Notes: generated from the sequence alone by a model not told the origin. 64,000 bases of DNA from an uncultured Bacillales bacterium (GCA_946611235.1 CAMODE010000041.1:8316-72315), one strand, 5' to 3'. Shown: positions 1 through 5,818, numbered from the stretch's first letter. Numbers and translations: made by a program.

Positions 1-900
1 ACTAGATGGTTCTATTCCAGATGAAGATAAAACAATTGATGTAGTAGCACTATTTGTTAGGAACACCGCTCCTTCATTTTGTTTTATACATACATTATAT
101 GTCTTATCATTAGCAGTAGGATCAGTATCACTTGGAGCACCAATATTAAACGATGTTAAACTATTGCCCAAAGAATCCACTAATGAAAAGTTAGTATTAC
201 TAGAAGATAGTTCAAAATTTCGAGCATACTTATAAGTATTAATTACTTCGACATCAAAACAATCAATAGTATTATTACCTCTTAAATCAACAGAATTAGT
301 AACAAGTGTACCTGTTAAATCACCTGTATTATCAACCGTACCAGTAGCTCCGCCTCCTCCACCAACATTAATATTGGCATTTCCTCTTGAACCAACATTT
401 ATGGTAAGTACTATAGCCATACACCTCGTTTCATAGGCATAAATTGTCTCTCCAACATTAATATTATGATTCTTATTAGATGTTGCCACTGTAAAAGAAA
501 CATTAGCACCACTATTGGATTCATTACCACTAGTTACATGAACCTCAGGATTCATAGCAATTCCCGTAAAGGTAAAATCAAGTGGACTAGAATTTTCAAC
601 ATATATTAGATATGTTGCTTTATATGTTTTTTCTTCTTGTGAAACTCTAAAATTATAGTCAAGATCGACATTACCATCTTCATCAACAGTCATACTACCA
701 TAATTTTGAAGAGTATTACCACTAGCAGAAGTATCTAATTGAACTCCTGTTATTTTAACTTTACCAGTCTTATTTAAACTAACAACACCTTGAATACCTA
801 AATCCTTAAAAAAAACAGCATATCCTATCGTAAGTGTTGTTACAAACATAGTAATTGCTATGCTAAGTAATAAATCTTTATGTTTAAATATATTCTTCAT
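1..900 (-). CDS. Secreted/cell-surface protein, N-terminal 300 aa (partial, runs off window start); TasA/camelysin-like SipW-type signal anchor
   Basis: Not in ORF track. Hand translation from ATG (898-900) is open to position 1: MKNIFKHKDLLLSIAITMFVTTLTIGYAVFFKDLGIQGVVSLNKTGK... The TM + GYAVF motif resembles the TasA signal (GTWAAF). Starts 5 nt after the stop of 906-1952. Confidence 0.6.
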   Translation of the reverse strand, partial: MKNIFKHKDLLLSIAITMFVTTLTIGYAVFFKDLGIQGVVSLNKTGKVKITGVQLDTSASGNTLQNYGSMTVDEDGNVDLDYNFRVSQEEKTYKATYLIYVENSSPLDFTFTGIAMNPEVHVTSGNESNSGANVSFTVATSNKNHNINVGETIYAYETRCMAIVLTINVGSRGNANINVGGGGGATGTVDNTGDLTGTLVTNSVDLRGNNTIDCFDVEVINTYKYARNFELSSSNTNFSLVDSLGNSLTSFNIGAPSDTDPTANDKTYNVCIKQNEGAVFLTNSATTSIVLSSSGIEPSS

Positions 901-905
901 ATTCA

Positions 906-1952
906 TTACTCCCTTACAACACGATAGCGCCATGCCATTTTATCATTTATTAGAATAAAATCTGAATAATCATTTCCTTTAATAAAATTAATAGGTTGTC
1001 TAACTTCCGAATGAGCATCAATTAACTCACTAAATTTACTAACATCGACAACATTAAATTTATCTAGTTTTGGCATATTATTTAAATTAACAATAATACC
1101 ATCATATTCTTTTAAGATTTTCTTTATTGTCTTTAAATAAATACTTTGTCTTTCTCCTAATCTTACAAATATTAATGATAACCATATAAACAATCCAATA
1201 CCCAAAGCAAAACTAGATCCTCCACCAATTCTAAGAGCTAATACTGTGCTATCTTTAATAATTGTTTTTTTAGAAGTAATTGCCCCAATATTATTAGTAT
1301 CAGATGTAATACTAATTGGTACTTCAATTGTTGCTTTAGTAAGAGGAATTGATAAGATTGAATAAGACTCCTTCTTCTTATCATCTTTCCCATCTACTTT
1401 ATTTTCTACATATAAAACAACTTTTAAAGTACCATCTAATGATAAATTATATTCTTTCTTAAATTCTAGTAAGATATCATTATATTTTTGGTAATCTACT
1501 TTAATATTTTCGTTAAAATTAATTACTCTAGTGTTTTCATAATCTACTGTTTTTACTTCTGTTAAATTATATTCTTTTTCCCAGAAATTCTTAGTATTAT
1601 CATCAACTTTAGTAGCACTAGCTACTGCTTTTATATAGTAACTATAACTACCTGAAGCAGGTTTATCAAGTATTAAACTATTATTAAAATCTATATCTAA
1701 GTAATCAATTAAACTAGTAATATAAATATTATCTTTTCCTAAATAAGGTTCTTCAAAGAAATTATTTTCTTTTAAATATACTTTATAATCAATAGTATTA
1801 TTTTCTTTATAGTATATACTAGTATCTTCGGTATTAAATAGGCTCTTTTTAAATAGACGAATGCCTACGACTACTGTTATAATGCTAAGTACAAATAATA
1901 TAAAACATTTTAAAGGTAGTTTAACCCTATTAGTTTTATTCTTCTTAGGCAT
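906..1952 (-). CDS. Bitopic membrane protein (DUF5305-like, from memory), partner of SipW/TasA-type operons
   Basis: 348-aa ORF with an N-terminal TM (CFILFVLSIITVVVGI) and a second TM near residue 245. Sits between the SipW-type peptidase and a TasA-like substrate gene. Confidence 0.55.
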   Translation of the reverse strand: MPKKNKTNRVKLPLKCFILFVLSIITVVVGIRLFKKSLFNTEDTSIYYKENNTIDYKVYLKENNFFEEPYLGKDNIYITSLIDYLDIDFNNSLILDKPASGSYSYYIKAVASATKVDDNTKNFWEKEYNLTEVKTVDYENTRVINFNENIKVDYQKYNDILLEFKKEYNLSLDGTLKVVLYVENKVDGKDDKKKESYSILSIPLTKATIEVPISITSDTNNIGAITSKKTIIKDSTVLALRIGGGSSFALGIGLFIWLSLIFVRLGERQSIYLKTIKKILKEYDGIIVNLNNMPKLDKFNVVDVSKFSELIDAHSEVRQPINFIKGNDYSDFILINDKMAWRYRVVRE

Positions 1953-1963
1953 TCTAGCACCTC

Positions 1964-3088
1964 CTAGCTATTAAACCATACTGTTGGATAACCAATATAT
2001 TTAACAATGTATTTAACTGTCCCTAATACATCCTTCTCAGTTATCTTTATTTTATCTTCAGTATTGTTATTGTCCCCCTTAGTTCTAAATGTATAATGCC
2101 CATTATCGTTTACTTTACTTACCACTCTATGGGTTATTATAGAATTACCACTTTTAAAAACCAATATATCCCCTTCATTAATCTTTTCCACTCTTTCTTT
2201 ATAGTAGATAATAGCATCTCCTCTATAATAAACAGGATTCATTGAATCAGACATTATCGCTATCATATGATACTTAAAGATGCCTGATACCAATGCTGTT
2301 ATTATCAAAGTAAATATCAGTATAAAGGAAAATACAAAGTTTCTAAGATATTTTTTAGCATACATATTATATTTTTCTTTATATGTAATATTCTTACTTA
2401 CTTGCTTATAAACAAGATAAGGAAATACTACTCCAGTTACCGCTGTTATATAATTACCTAAATTAGGTAGTATTGGTATAACATAACCCCACAGATTTAA
2501 TGCAAGACTAATTAGAATCGTGGGAAGAGGGCTAACATTATAAGTAATATAACTATATAAAACCTCTCTAGCAATAATTGGAAGGATAATAACACTTGTA
2601 ACTAAAAATATCATTTCATGATTATTTAAAGTCATATTATTAATTGTCATTATCATATTTAAACTTATAATTAATACAGTAAATATAACAACTTGTATTT
2701 TATTTGGATTTTTTCTAAATATTAAGTATCTACATAATTCTACTAAATCAACATATAAGATTATTGGAACAATATTTCTAAGCATTCCAAATAATGAATG
2801 TGAATGTATTGATTTAGCAAATCCAGTAAATAATCCAAGTATATAAAGTACTAAAGTATATAATAGCAACATAATTACTACAGTTTTAGTAGTACTCTTT
2901 TTTAGATAATTCTTATCCTTTGGAAATCCTCCCATTATTATTAAACTAATAAAAAGAATTAACCAAAATCCTAAATTTATATACTCGTAATATTCAAAAT
3001 TATTATCCATAATTAAAAATTTAAATATGATAATAAAGATTAGTAATACTATTTCAATTATATATATCCTTTTTATATTCTTTTTCAT
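1964..3088 (-). CDS. SipW-type (ER/archaeal-type) signal peptidase I fused to a ~260-aa polytopic N-terminal membrane domain
   Basis: The C-terminal ~110 aa carries the SPase boxes SDSMNP (catalytic Ser), ITHRVV (His) and TKGDNN. The N-terminal part has about 8 hydrophobic segments by eye. Confidence 0.75.
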   Translation of the reverse strand: MKKNIKRIYIIEIVLLIFIIIFKFLIMDNNFEYYEYINLGFWLILFISLIIMGGFPKDKNYLKKSTTKTVVIMLLLYTLVLYILGLFTGFAKSIHSHSLFGMLRNIVPIILYVDLVELCRYLIFRKNPNKIQVVIFTVLIISLNMIMTINNMTLNNHEMIFLVTSVIILPIIAREVLYSYITYNVSPLPTILISLALNLWGYVIPILPNLGNYITAVTGVVFPYLVYKQVSKNITYKEKYNMYAKKYLRNFVFSFILIFTLIITALVSGIFKYHMIAIMSDSMNPVYYRGDAIIYYKERVEKINEGDILVFKSGNSIITHRVVSKVNDNGHYTFRTKGDNNNTEDKIKITEKDVLGTVKYIVKYIGYPTVWFNS

Positions 3089-3169
3089 ACTATCACCTTG
3101 TTAATGGGTGAGAGTTCTGTCAAAAGACAGAACACTCCCATTAAAACATCTAAGAATAATCATTCTTAA

Positions 3170-3757
3170 TTAAAATCCAGCATCAACATAACTTAAAGTA
3201 GCTGATAAATTTAGTGGCCCCAAATCATTTTTTAATAAGTCAGATTCACCAGCAGGAACTTTATACATAATCTTTACAGTAACATTAACAGTTCCATTCT
3301 TTTTAGCAAGGACAGGTCCATCACTAATTGAAGTGTTAGTGGAATTGTAAACAGTTGAACCATAAGTAAGCGTATAATCTACATATTTAGCATTTTCTTC
3401 AGATACTCCAGCTAATGTAACACCAGTTAATCTAGCATCGATAGTACCATCATTTACGACAGTTGTCGTAAATTCATAATAGTCACCAGGTTTAGCTAAA
3501 GTAACATTATAAGTACTTAATGTAGTGCCCGCTTCATCTACTGTTGGTGCAGCTGTAGGATCAACACTACCGTCAGCTTTTTTATAAGCACCTTCACCTG
3601 TTTTAACAAAGTGTACACTCCATTTAGCAGCAGTTAATGTAGCATTACCATTGATATTTAAATTTTGGTTGAATGCGGCGAAACCTACTGCCATAACTAA
3701 GATAGCTACTGCTAGCACTCCTATGATTGCTGTCTGAACATGTTTTTGTTTTTCCAT
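3170..3757 (-). CDS. TasA/camelysin-like secreted protein with SipW-dependent-type signal peptide
   Basis: AGGAGG RBS 9 nt before ATG at 3757 (the ORF track extends to 3793). N-terminus MEKQKHVQTAIIGVLAVAILVMAVGFAAFNQNLNINGNATL has an AAFN motif as in TasA. Beta-rich, Thr/Val-rich body. Confidence 0.65.
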   Translation of the reverse strand: MEKQKHVQTAIIGVLAVAILVMAVGFAAFNQNLNINGNATLTAAKWSVHFVKTGEGAYKKADGSVDPTAAPTVDEAGTTLSTYNVTLAKPGDYYEFTTTVVNDGTIDARLTGVTLAGVSEENAKYVDYTLTYGSTVYNSTNTSISDGPVLAKKNGTVNVTVKIMYKVPAGESDLLKNDLGPLNLSATLSYVDAGF

Positions 3758-3832
3758 TTTTTCATCTCCTCCTATCATATATAATGATATCACAAATAGA
3801 TAAAAGGTGTCAATTAGTATTAATCTTTTTTT

Positions 3833-4222
3833 TTACAATTTTTGTACTATATTGTAAATATCTTCTATATAAATTATTTCTTTATTTTCTAGTATTATTT
3901 TCTTATATATAAAATCTATCTTTTTTATCTTACCTATTATGTCTAAATATTCCCCCCCGTTTTTATATTTATCATGTTTAAAATATGTTATTAAGTAAGA
4001 ATTGTCTTTATCAATTTTATTTAATGTATAATTTATTTCTTCTATTTTGTCTCTACTTAATACTTTTTTAGTATCTACTAGTCTTCCTTCTTCTAAAATA
4101 GATTCATTATATCCAGTAAGCGCAGCAAATGGCATAAATTCTTTGGCTCTACTTTCGATTGGCATCTTGGGGTGATTAGATATTGGTCTAGATAAATTAA
4201 TTATATCTTCATATTTATTCAT
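3833..4222 (-). CDS. YolD-like protein (accessory to Y-family polymerase)
   Basis: 129-aa ORF overlapping the stop of the polymerase gene by 8 nt. Contains an FMPFAALTGY motif. The gene pair polymerase + YolD-like matches B. subtilis uvrX-yolD. Confidence 0.6.
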   Translation of the reverse strand: MNKYEDIINLSRPISNHPKMPIESRAKEFMPFAALTGYNESILEEGRLVDTKKVLSRDKIEEINYTLNKIDKDNSYLITYFKHDKYKNGGEYLDIIGKIKKIDFIYKKIILENKEIIYIEDIYNIVQKL

Positions 4223-5708
4223 GATGACCCCCTATTTGAGAATTCCTTTCGATAGCAGTAGCTCCTTCTTCCAAATCCATTGCTTTAATAATAGCATTCT
4301 TTCCAAATTTCTTCTTTATTTCTAGAATAGTTCTTTGGACTTTTCTATCTTCTATTTCTTTAGTATTATCTTGTTTATTAGTTATATTATTATTAAATAA
4401 ATCTAACTGATTATAATTTATTTTTTTCTTTGATTGTTCTTCAGTTAAAACATTTCCAAAAGTAATATTAATTCTTTTTACTGATAAGTTTTTATTTATA
4501 ATATTATCGTATAGTTTAATAATATTATCTCTTATTATCTTAGACGATGAAGTACATCTATCTAGTAATATACTACCATGACTTTCTTTAGGTATATATC
4601 TTCCATAATAATCTTTTTTAATTATTCCATTATATCCATTAGTTAAGTTTTCACTATCATACATTATTGTTAATATTATACTATTTGTTACTAAGTTTTT
4701 ATCTACTAAATCTAAAGATAATGAATCAGCCATTTCTTTAACAATAAGTTTAGTTTTAATATAATCATATGGACAAGATAATACTTGACCAGAAGATATA
4801 CTATTTGTTTTCGGTTTGTAGTTTTTAATATCCTTAATTGTGCATGGTTCTACTCCCCAAGCATGGTCTATTAATATTTCAGCATCTATTCCAAATAATT
4901 TATATAATAATTCTTCATTTTTAATATCATTTAAAGTTCCTAAAGAACATCTAGCAATATCTCCCATGGTATATATATGATTATCTTCAAGTTTCTTAGC
5001 ATATCCCTTTCCTACTCTCCAAAAATCCGTAAGAGGAGTATGACTCCATAATTTTTCCTTATATAATTGTTCATTTAAGTAAGCTATTCTTACTCCATCA
5101 GAATCTTCTTTAATATGTTTAGCCATGATATCCATAGCTACTTTAGCTAGATATAAATTAGTACCAATACCCCCAGTAGCGGTTATTCCAGTTTCTTTTA
5201 AAATATTTTTAATTATCTTATTAGTAAGTTCATAAGGAGTCATTTTATACATCTTTAAATAATTCGTAGCATCAATAAATACTTCATCTATCGAATAGAC
5301 ATGAATATCTTCTTTAGATATATATTTTAAATATATATTATATATTCTAGTACTATAGTCTATATATAATTTCATTCTAGGCCCCGCAATAATAAAATCT
5401 AATTCTAGATACGGATTATTTATTATTTCATTATTATTCGTACTTTTACCAGTAAAATATTTATAATTTATTTTTTTTCTTCTCTTTATATTTATTTCTT
5501 TTATTTTTTGTTCAACTTCAAATAATCTTGCTCTACCTGGAATACCATAGCTTTTTAAAGAAGGAGAAACCGCTAAACAGATGGTTTTAGAAGTACGAGA
5601 AGAGTCCGCTACTACTAGATTAGTAGTAAGAGGATCTAAATTTCTTTCTTTACATTCTACTGATGCATAAAATGATTTTAAATCTATTGCTATATATACT
5701 TTATCCAT
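4215..5708 (-). CDS. Y-family (DinB/UmuC/UvrX-like) translesion DNA polymerase
   Basis: Start MDKVYIAIDLKSFYASVEC (GGTGA RBS; the ORF track extends to 5753). Also has SIDEVFID and a little-finger region. Confidence 0.85.
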   Translation of the reverse strand: MDKVYIAIDLKSFYASVECKERNLDPLTTNLVVADSSRTSKTICLAVSPSLKSYGIPGRARLFEVEQKIKEINIKRRKKINYKYFTGKSTNNNEIINNPYLELDFIIAGPRMKLYIDYSTRIYNIYLKYISKEDIHVYSIDEVFIDATNYLKMYKMTPYELTNKIIKNILKETGITATGGIGTNLYLAKVAMDIMAKHIKEDSDGVRIAYLNEQLYKEKLWSHTPLTDFWRVGKGYAKKLEDNHIYTMGDIARCSLGTLNDIKNEELLYKLFGIDAEILIDHAWGVEPCTIKDIKNYKPKTNSISSGQVLSCPYDYIKTKLIVKEMADSLSLDLVDKNLVTNSIILTIMYDSENLTNGYNGIIKKDYYGRYIPKESHGSILLDRCTSSSKIIRDNIIKLYDNIINKNLSVKRINITFGNVLTEEQSKKKINYNQLDLFNNNITNKQDNTKEIEDRKVQRTILEIKKKFGKNAIIKAMDLEEGATAIERNSQIGGHHE

Positions 5709-5818
5709 ATCCATCACCATAATTATTATATAAAATATGTTTATCTTAGTCAATAATTTTATTATACATTTGTTTGCTAATATTTAGTAAATAAAAAGAT
5801 AAATGATTTTATATCTTT

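Follow-up and report, generated by a model that had tools for sequence, protein, structure and literature searches.

Here, we describe a four-gene operon at the start of a 64,000-nucleotide stretch of DNA from an uncultured Bacillales bacterium, a small-genome inhabitant of the rumen or gut (the window; positions 8316-72315 of contig CAMODE010000041.1, hereafter C41, in the 1.27-Mb, 92%-complete assembly GCA_946611235.1). The operon probably specifies a surface-fibre system of the TasA superfamily, in which the fibre subunits would be matured by a dedicated signal peptidase equipped with a non-catalytic docking domain of eight transmembrane (TM) helices and assisted by a DUF5305 protein. The list of open reading frames (ORFs) places four genes on the minus strand, encoding in order a small secreted subunit, the fused peptidase, the DUF5305 protein and a large secreted subunit (Table 1), at the positions given in a preliminary description made from the window alone. 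That description had interpreted the locus as a TasA-type fibre operon, with a peptidase of the SipW/endoplasmic reticulum (ER) type acting on two substrates with related signals, an interpretation that is supported by the fold match of the small subunit, the conservation of the signals and the limits of the operon.

Small subunit

The product of the first gene is taken to be 195 amino acids (aa) long because an AGGAGG ribosome-binding site (RBS) lies 8 nt 5' of the ATG at position 3757 and homologues share that length (~185–200 aa in a separate set, n = 46); an alternative GTG start at 3793 would give 207 aa. Across 93 small subunits, the mean pairwise identity is 49% in the h-region of the signal, 46% in the cleavage site and N-terminal strand, and 36% in the globular part. 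Conservation of the cleavage region is nearly complete (Gly25 90%, Phe/Tyr26 100%, Ala27 100%), and conserved positions alternate along the candidate strand that follows (Tyr/Phe29 85%, Leu33 97%, Ile35 85%, Gly37 95%); position 31, the mature +4 residue, is Gln in 60% of the sequences and otherwise Thr or Ala. A cut after Ala27 would yield Ala-Phe-Asn-Gln…, near the Ala-Phe-Asn-Asp… of TasA, in which it is the aromatic P2' residue that makes processing depend on SipW rather than a LepB-type enzyme (PMC10269814). The signal peptides of both substrates are of the classical n-h-c Sec type, with a small-x-Ala site and no twin arginine, and a genome-wide pattern search for the signal-plus-motif signature retrieved no proteins other than the two of the operon. 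The small subunits are acidic, with isoelectric points of 4.1–4.8.

The AlphaFold2 (AF2) model of the small subunit (predicted local distance difference test, pLDDT, 83) is confident in a beta core that starts at residue 48 and leaves residues 24–47 unpaired. Its best structural match in the PDB is the TasA fibre (8aur, E 2.5e-4, probability 1.0), followed by CfaB of CFA/I pili and the Sulfolobus 0406 thread 7pnb (template-modelling score, TM-score, 0.41–0.43); each of the three belongs to a filament built through donor-strand complementation. The label "TasA-like" in the preliminary description is partly backed by this structural match and not by family membership, given that neither secreted protein matches the Pfam TasA/camelysin family (Peptidase_M73). 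Family models of SipW-cognate signals did not match the pilins, and PDB entries 9SJ2 and 9RHP were absent among the matches in both the structure search and the profile search of PDB sequences.

Two more secreted proteins, each with a signal peptide and a TasA-like N-terminus (GGTLAWLEWGSEINALVNG and TLALTLRFGPTNIDITTANV), are encoded ~5–8 kb beyond the window start (L002 658-1863 and 1-447, C41 minus strand). They match no family and could be further substrates of SipW-type enzymes.

Fused signal peptidase

The 374-aa product of the second gene carries the SipW/ER-type signal peptidase boxes named in the preliminary description (SDSMNP at 280–285, ITHRVV at 318–323 and TKGDNN at 336–341), and its C-terminal 120 residues (252–371) score 89.7 bits against TIGR02228 (cut-off 51.85 bits, E 1.8e-25). 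Against the SipW equivalog model NF046067, the score is 63.5 bits, below the cut-off of 190 bits; judged by these profiles, the peptidase is of the same class as SipW and not its orthologue. S282, H320, D339 and D345, the codons of which were checked in the window sequence, are invariant in 50 diverse members, the set used for all residue conservation in this protein. The family profile retrieved human SEC11C (1.7e-23) and SEC11A (7.6e-23), and a Foldseek search with the AF2 model (pLDDT 87.5, predicted TM-score 0.77) returned SEC11C/A (7p2q, 7p2p) as the best PDB matches. By these comparisons the catalytic domain is of the SEC11/archaeal S26B type, with a putative Ser-His-Asp catalytic set instead of the bacterial Ser-Lys dyad.

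The same genome encodes one LepB-type housekeeping peptidase (contig C34) and two further peptidases of the archaeal type. Given this separate housekeeping enzyme, the window peptidase is considered a dedicated one. The second fused peptidase (C55:8839-11467, minus strand; 376 aa) is 30% identical to that of the window, retains the ExxR pair described below in the same helix, and adjoins a 471-aa DUF5305 homologue (7.5e-53) with a long Lys/Glu-rich tail; the upstream side of this locus is cut by the contig end (11696), so that any upstream subunit gene is lost. The third peptidase (C5:18392-21816, plus strand) is short and SipW-like (223 aa), and is followed by a 438-aa membrane-anchored protein and then by a 471-aa secreted protein (…SSTSALFTHKD…); this locus may represent a third fibre or adhesin system, of another kind.

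Eight-helix membrane domain

N-terminal to the peptidase, where about eight hydrophobic helices had been noted, the AF2 model has eight TM helices and then a long helix, the final part of which is the peptidase anchor. Across the 50 members, basic residues concentrate at the N-terminus, in loops 54–64 and 124–130 and in helix 229–249, and the alternate loops are nearly free of them, a pattern that, under the positive-inside rule, indicates an N-in topology and a catalytic domain that is predicted to lie on the outer face of the membrane. The only invariant polar residues of the domain are E117 and R120; Y82, Y180 and Y213 are conserved in at least 80% of the members, His reaches at most 16% and Cys at most 34% in any column, and no Ser, Thr or Lys is conserved.

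Among the roles suggested for the fused domain in the preliminary description was that of a second catalytic, sortase-like module. This suggestion finds no support: the 50 members share no conserved Cys, His, Ser or Lys, and no family match was obtained. One form that such a module could take is an active intramembrane glutamic protease of the CPBP/Rce1 type, making a second cut in the degradation of signal peptides or the trimming of subunits. Foldseek aligned the domain with Rce1 (4cad), likewise an eight-helix bundle, over ~270 columns with a probability of 0.98–0.99, a TM-score of 0.51, a root-mean-square deviation of 7 Å and a borderline E-value of 0.08, and the invariant pair does consist of one Glu and one Arg. 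Rce1 catalysis, however, requires Glu140, His173, His227 and Asn231 (PMC5874806), and His stays at or below 16% in every column of the domain. The CPBP motifs EExxxR, FxxxH and HxxxN are absent, the invariant pair being spaced ExxR, and its equation with the Rce1 EExxxR motif was rejected on position, as E117 lies near the end of TM4 and Glu140 of Rce1 near the start (PMC5874806). PF02517 recognized 0 of the 50 members even at E ≤ 10 and easily detected the three canonical CPBP genes of the same genome. Alignment of the domain with ten canonical CPBP proteins (these three and others from relatives) by hhalign gave a probability of 2%, and the family profile found no membrane protease among PDB sequences. 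The predicted topology differs as well, since the domain is expected to be N-in and MmRce1 is described with both termini luminal (PMC5874806). Membership of the CPBP/Rce1 family was therefore rejected on the Pfam, PDB-profile and hhalign results, with a weak hint from the fold left over; we regard an active protease of this type as improbable, and "Rce1-like eight-TM fold" as a weak structural analogy suggested by the model.

A second form would be an exosortase- or sortase-like polymerase or transpeptidase that links or anchors the subunits covalently. Its appeal is that the domain is polytopic and always fused to the peptidase, in an operon with no recognizable anchor gene. Set against this, no exosortase or archaeosortase model of NCBIfam matched at E ≤ 0.1, neither Cys nor His is conserved as a Cys-Arg-His triad would require, and a Ser, Thr or Lys nucleophile is equally missing; moreover, four ordinary sortases are encoded elsewhere in the genome, and the substrates carry no sorting motif. 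We give this activity hardly any credence. Exosortase, rhomboid and other catalytic identities were likewise discarded for want of a model match, a conserved nucleophile or a conserved His. Of the folds named in the preliminary description, CPBP thus has the weak structural match to Rce1, and neither CPBP nor exosortase has a profile match. Because the Rce1 His and Asn positions have no counterpart and exosortase models do not match, a second catalytic module was rejected, and the domain is most likely not an enzyme, as far as conservation can tell.

The domain might instead be a Sec-independent translocation channel or export platform for the subunits; in favour of this are its helical-bundle architecture, its transporter-like size and its fusion to an enzyme that acts on exported substrates. 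The signals of those substrates are classical Sec signals, though, the operon contains no gene for an ATPase or other energy coupling, and the fold match is to a protease and not to a transporter, which makes a channel very improbable. A docking function accords with the structure of Rce1, the cavity of which opens sideways into the bilayer (PMC5874806); a role of the eight-helix domain in binding a membrane-embedded helix is therefore plausible.

DUF5305 protein and large subunit

The 348-aa bitopic protein, likened to DUF5305 in the preliminary description, matches PF17231 (DUF5305) at 3.4e-13. Hydropathy and conservation point to a first TM helix at ~13–34, an outside domain, a second TM helix at ~245–266 and a cytoplasmic domain.

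The fourth gene is cut at the window edge and was completed by adding the upstream sequence of contig C41. Its full product has 836 aa, which confirms the second, larger secreted protein with a related signal that had been surmised from the truncated reading frame. The N-terminus, …TIGYA↓VFFKDLGIQG, comprises a related signal peptide and candidate donor strand, and the pilin hidden Markov model (HMM) matches residues 18–163.

A module of the Hint/bacterial-intein-like (BIL) type occupies approximately residues 540–700 (C41:7149-7630, outside the window) and is the most conserved region of the protein, with 49% identity compared to 26–36% elsewhere (55 homologues). It opens at Cys540 (CLxEGTxIxLAxG…), which, like the block-B His, is invariant in 27 sequences; in a set of 56 sequences, the Cys is conserved in at least 90%. 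The profile of the region matches 6y75/6tmm over the whole domain with an E-value of 3e-7; the depositors name this molecule an ADP-ribosyltransferase, and we take the structure to be a BIL Hint domain. Sub-threshold family matches among the 27 members were to Hom_end_hint (24), Intein_splicing (19) and Hint (17). The end of the domain, …ANDxLTTDG, lacks the C-terminal His-Asn required for splicing, and so the module would carry out an N-S acyl shift with N-terminal cleavage or thioester transfer, not splicing. A polymorphic toxin, with a pretoxin Hint that releases a C-terminal toxin, was considered and rejected: the last 140 residues show no hypervariability, their identity of 35% being on a par with the remainder of the protein, they resemble a Listeria-Bacteroides repeat, and no immunity-like gene lies downstream. 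A literature search found no paper linking Hint/BIL modules to TasA-type or donor-strand fibres, which, with the limited library searched, is weak evidence of novelty.

Conservation and distribution

A survey of species-representative genomes yielded 80 loci, each of them in a metagenome-assembled genome of an uncultured organism from the gut or rumen, with record labels of Bacilli, Erysipelotrichaceae, Tenericutes/Mycoplasmatota, Clostridia or Saccharibacteria. The four-gene order on one strand recurs in ~70 of them, with a fourth protein of ~780–850 aa, and the arrangement is therefore not a matter of chance. DUF5305 adjoins the peptidase in 78 loci, and a few loci carry two to four small subunits. 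A subgroup of higher guanine-plus-cytosine content keeps the three-gene core (subunit, fused peptidase and DUF5305) without the large subunit. The three-gene loci L063, L065, L070, L075, L076, L078 and L080 are labelled Candidatus Saccharibacteria in their records, a label given here as deposited.

Relatives of the fused peptidase number more than 1000, and the best 120 of these are all full-length (~375 aa). An exhaustive search with residues 1–250 alone returned 572 cluster representatives, and because nearly all of these are 370–390 aa long, the N-terminal domain is essentially always fused to a peptidase. In an even sample of 399 genomes of the phylum, the domain was present in 11, of which 10 belong to the window's own family of 0.8–1.3-Mb genomes. 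A distant spore-former has the same cassette.

One 812-aa protein, P0219, was considered as a triple fusion with DUF5305. Instead, it joins the N-terminal domain and the beginning of the peptidase to a 5'-nucleotidase domain and a phosphoesterase of the calcineurin-like type, and is probably an assembly or gene-call chimera, not a real architecture.

Operon limits and transcription signals

Only 11 nt separate the peptidase stop from the DUF5305 start, with an AGGAGG RBS between them; the large gene overlaps the DUF5305 stop by 28 nt, and a terminator-like hairpin (C41:6721-6739) abuts the stop of the large gene. With one strong promoter, one terminator, close or overlapping genes and good RBSs, the four genes look co-transcribed, as the preliminary description had implied.

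The hairpin region between the pilin and peptidase genes has a minimum free energy of -27.7 kcal/mol (z = -5.1) and no U-run. A comparable hairpin of unrelated sequence occupies the same position in 37 of 78 related loci, a recurrence that suggests attenuation or mRNA stabilization in favour of the subunit.

Table 1 Features of the operon in the window
Feature	Position	Strand	Basis
Promoter-like site, TTGACA-18 nt-TATCAT with TG (extended -10)	3784..3813	-	Best minus-strand match in the region, 11/12 positions
Gene for small secreted pilin-like protein, 195 aa	3170..3757	-	ORF; homologues; AF2; PDB structural matches
Signal peptide, residues 1-27, MEKQKHVQTAIIGVLAVAILVMAVGFA, predicted cut after Ala27	3677..3757	-	Conservation
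Candidate N-terminal donor strand, residues 28-46, AFNQNLNINGNATLTAAKW	3620..3676	-	Alternating conservation; low pLDDT
Intergenic region with stable hairpins, main stem 3106-3139	3089..3169	-	Folding energy
Gene for fused signal peptidase, 374 aa	1964..3088	-	ORF; TIGR02228; AF2; Foldseek
Predicted eight-TM N-terminal domain, residues 1-248; E117 codon 2738-2740, R120 codon 2729-2731	2345..3088	-	AF2; positive-inside rule
Anchor helix and SEC11/archaeal-type S26B catalytic domain, residues 249-374	1967..2344	-	TIGR02228; SEC11 profile; Foldseek
DUF5305 accessory protein, 348 aa	906..1952	-	PF17231
Large subunit, first 311 codons of 836 aa	1..933	-	Remainder at C41:6738-8315

The upstream genes for a YolD-like protein and a Y-family polymerase were rejected as operon members, as the promoter intervenes and the neighbourhood is not conserved; two YibE/F genes downstream are likewise outside the transcription unit. 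The YolD-like protein (129 aa, sub-threshold PF08863) is encoded 3' of, and overlapping, the gene for the 512-aa Y-family DNA polymerase (3833-5753, minus strand). Such YolD-like/Y-family polymerase pairs are familiar from SOS mutagenesis cassettes of Bacillus. Farther off, flanked by the YibE/F genes on one side and a gene for a PP-loop ATPase on the other, lie two small overlapping genes (84 and 83 aa; L002 4265-4764, C41 minus strand), presumably resembling a Phd/YefM-YoeB/Txe toxin-antitoxin pair.

Comparison with known systems

The closest parallel is with the loci of AbpX from Pyrodictium abyssi and its bacterial and archaeal homologues, where a dedicated type I signal peptidase with ten TM helices is accompanied by minor subunits, tip proteins and an accessory protein of the DUF5305 family, and where an acidic mature +4 residue is tied to calcium-mediated strand complementation (bioRxiv 10.64898/2026.01.04.697558). 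Shared with the operon are a small acidic subunit with an aromatic mature +2 residue, a polytopic peptidase of the TIGR02228 type, DUF5305 and a larger tip or minor subunit; the peptidases are likened by the published description, and nine TM helices are predicted here against ten in AbpX loci. The operon differs from AbpX loci in that the mature +4 residue is Gln, Thr or Ala and not acidic, that there is no LPXTG or S-layer homology (SLH) anchor and no regulator, and that the large subunit carries a Hint/BIL module.

The preliminary description had presented the locus as an uncharacterised variant of the TasA system. The fusion layout itself is already contained in this preprint of January 2026, and the claim has to be qualified accordingly. 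The association of a SipW-type/polytopic fusion with DUF5305 in a TasA-like operon is thus already recorded descriptively, with the function of the membrane domain unassigned, and what appears to be new here is the Hint/BIL module in the large subunit, pilins without an acidic +4 residue and the recurrent post-pilin hairpin.

In the haloarchaeal Tafi, too, a peptidase gene is paired with a DUF5305 gene beside donor-strand pilins (PMC11821415, PMC12337348). Deletion of TafD in Haloarcula abolishes both TafA processing and fibres (PMC11821415), and TafG, a DUF5305 protein, has been put forward as a helper of the peptidase TafD (PMC12337348). The Taf pilins (TafA/E) use twin-arginine translocation (Tat) signals, whereas those of the operon are of the Sec type; TafD begins with its peptidase domain, has four TM helices and bears an additional C-terminal domain on the outside, whereas eight TM helices precede the peptidase here.

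With the TasA-SipW-TapA system of Bacillus subtilis, the operon shares a dedicated peptidase of the archaeal type, the Ala↓Ala-Phe-Asn context and a second, larger protein with a related N-terminus. TasA assembles by donor-strand exchange, as would the subunits here, and TapA donates a strand and nucleates the TasA fibre (PMC9674648, PMC10151520, PMC10269814). SipW of B. subtilis, however, has ~190 aa and no polytopic domain, and the tapA operon lacks DUF5305.

The eukaryotic signal peptidase complex (7p2p, 7p2q) contains the closest relatives of the catalytic domain by both sequence and fold, SEC11A/C. The accessory membrane parts of the operon system, with their outside and cytoplasmic modules, recall SPC22/23, SPC25 and SPC12, the sequences being unrelated; in contrast to the eukaryotic complex, the putative one here has one accessory part fused to the enzyme. 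The preprint draws the analogy to the signal peptidase complex as well (bioRxiv 10.64898/2026.01.04.697558).

Proposed maturation and assembly

In the scheme that we propose, which would make the self-contained operon a bacterial equivalent of the archaeal Taf and AbpX loci, Sec would export the 195-aa and 836-aa subunits by means of their unusually conserved signal peptides, and the dedicated peptidase, working with the DUF5305 protein, would cut the substrates after Gly-Phe-Ala (Ala27 in the small subunit). The cut would expose a new N-terminus in which position 2 is aromatic and an amphipathic strand comes after it, and this freed strand would most likely insert into the groove of the following subunit, in donor-strand complementation. 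The eight-helix domain would serve as an intramembrane dock or scaffold, holding the conserved signal-anchor helix beside the tethered catalytic domain, and together with DUF5305 and the catalytic domain it may form a prokaryotic analogue of the signal peptidase complex that eukaryotes build from several subunits. The large protein would be a minor subunit, acting as nucleator, tip or cap, or base, and its Hint/BIL module would cleave it, or form a thioester, at the junction of Trp539 and Cys540. The post-pilin hairpin would probably keep the subunit in excess over the machinery.

Several observations weigh against this scheme. The TM-scores of the small subunit to fibre subunits are low (0.32–0.43), and its profile retrieved nothing significant from the PDB sequences, with no sequence link to TasA, AbpX or any solved structure; for these reasons the fold class is suggestive and not proven. 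The large subunit has no LPXTG motif, no C-terminal TM segment and no other recognizable anchor. The scheme does not explain the invariant pair E117 and R120, located where TM4 nears the cytoplasm, and the docking function of the N-terminal domain is one that we purely infer.

The low TM-scores, together with the fact that the only sequence matches of the secreted proteins are weak ones to DUF11/CARDB-like and FN3-like motifs, would also suit monomeric immunoglobulin (Ig)/CARDB-like surface proteins or adhesins that require a SipW-type peptidase without being fibre subunits. Against such monomers speak the three top structural matches, all to donor-strand subunits, and the N-terminal strand, which is conserved, amphipathic and unpaired; in addition, the gene set matches the Tafi and AbpX loci, for which fibres have been shown experimentally, and a hairpin 3' of the first gene is typical of major-subunit genes. 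Monomeric proteins are accordingly unlikely, and a fibre remains the reading that we favour.

A more far-reaching version of the fibre scheme would have the holoenzyme of peptidase, eight-helix domain and DUF5305 act as an usher-like platform that keeps the conserved signal anchor in the membrane and releases each new strand into the growing fibre, with the Cys540 thioester of the Hint module linking the base covalently to a nucleophile of the cell envelope in a Hedgehog-like manner. We consider this version doubtful; if true, the holoenzyme would be the missing assembly platform for the chaperone-free fibres of the TasA superfamily.

Significance

Fibres of the TasA superfamily are an emerging matrix and adhesion system common to bacteria and archaea, and the lineage described here offers a minimal case, with three core genes and one accessory gene and without regulator or anchor genes. 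To the known systems it would add a lineage-specific minimal cassette and a Hint-bearing large subunit. The compact operon could be transferred to a laboratory host, which makes it a tractable system for the roles of the polytopic domain, DUF5305 and the Hint module in maturation and anchoring. Two or three such systems have been retained even in genomes of 0.8–1.3 Mb, an indication that they matter for the colonization of the gut and rumen by uncultured Bacilli.

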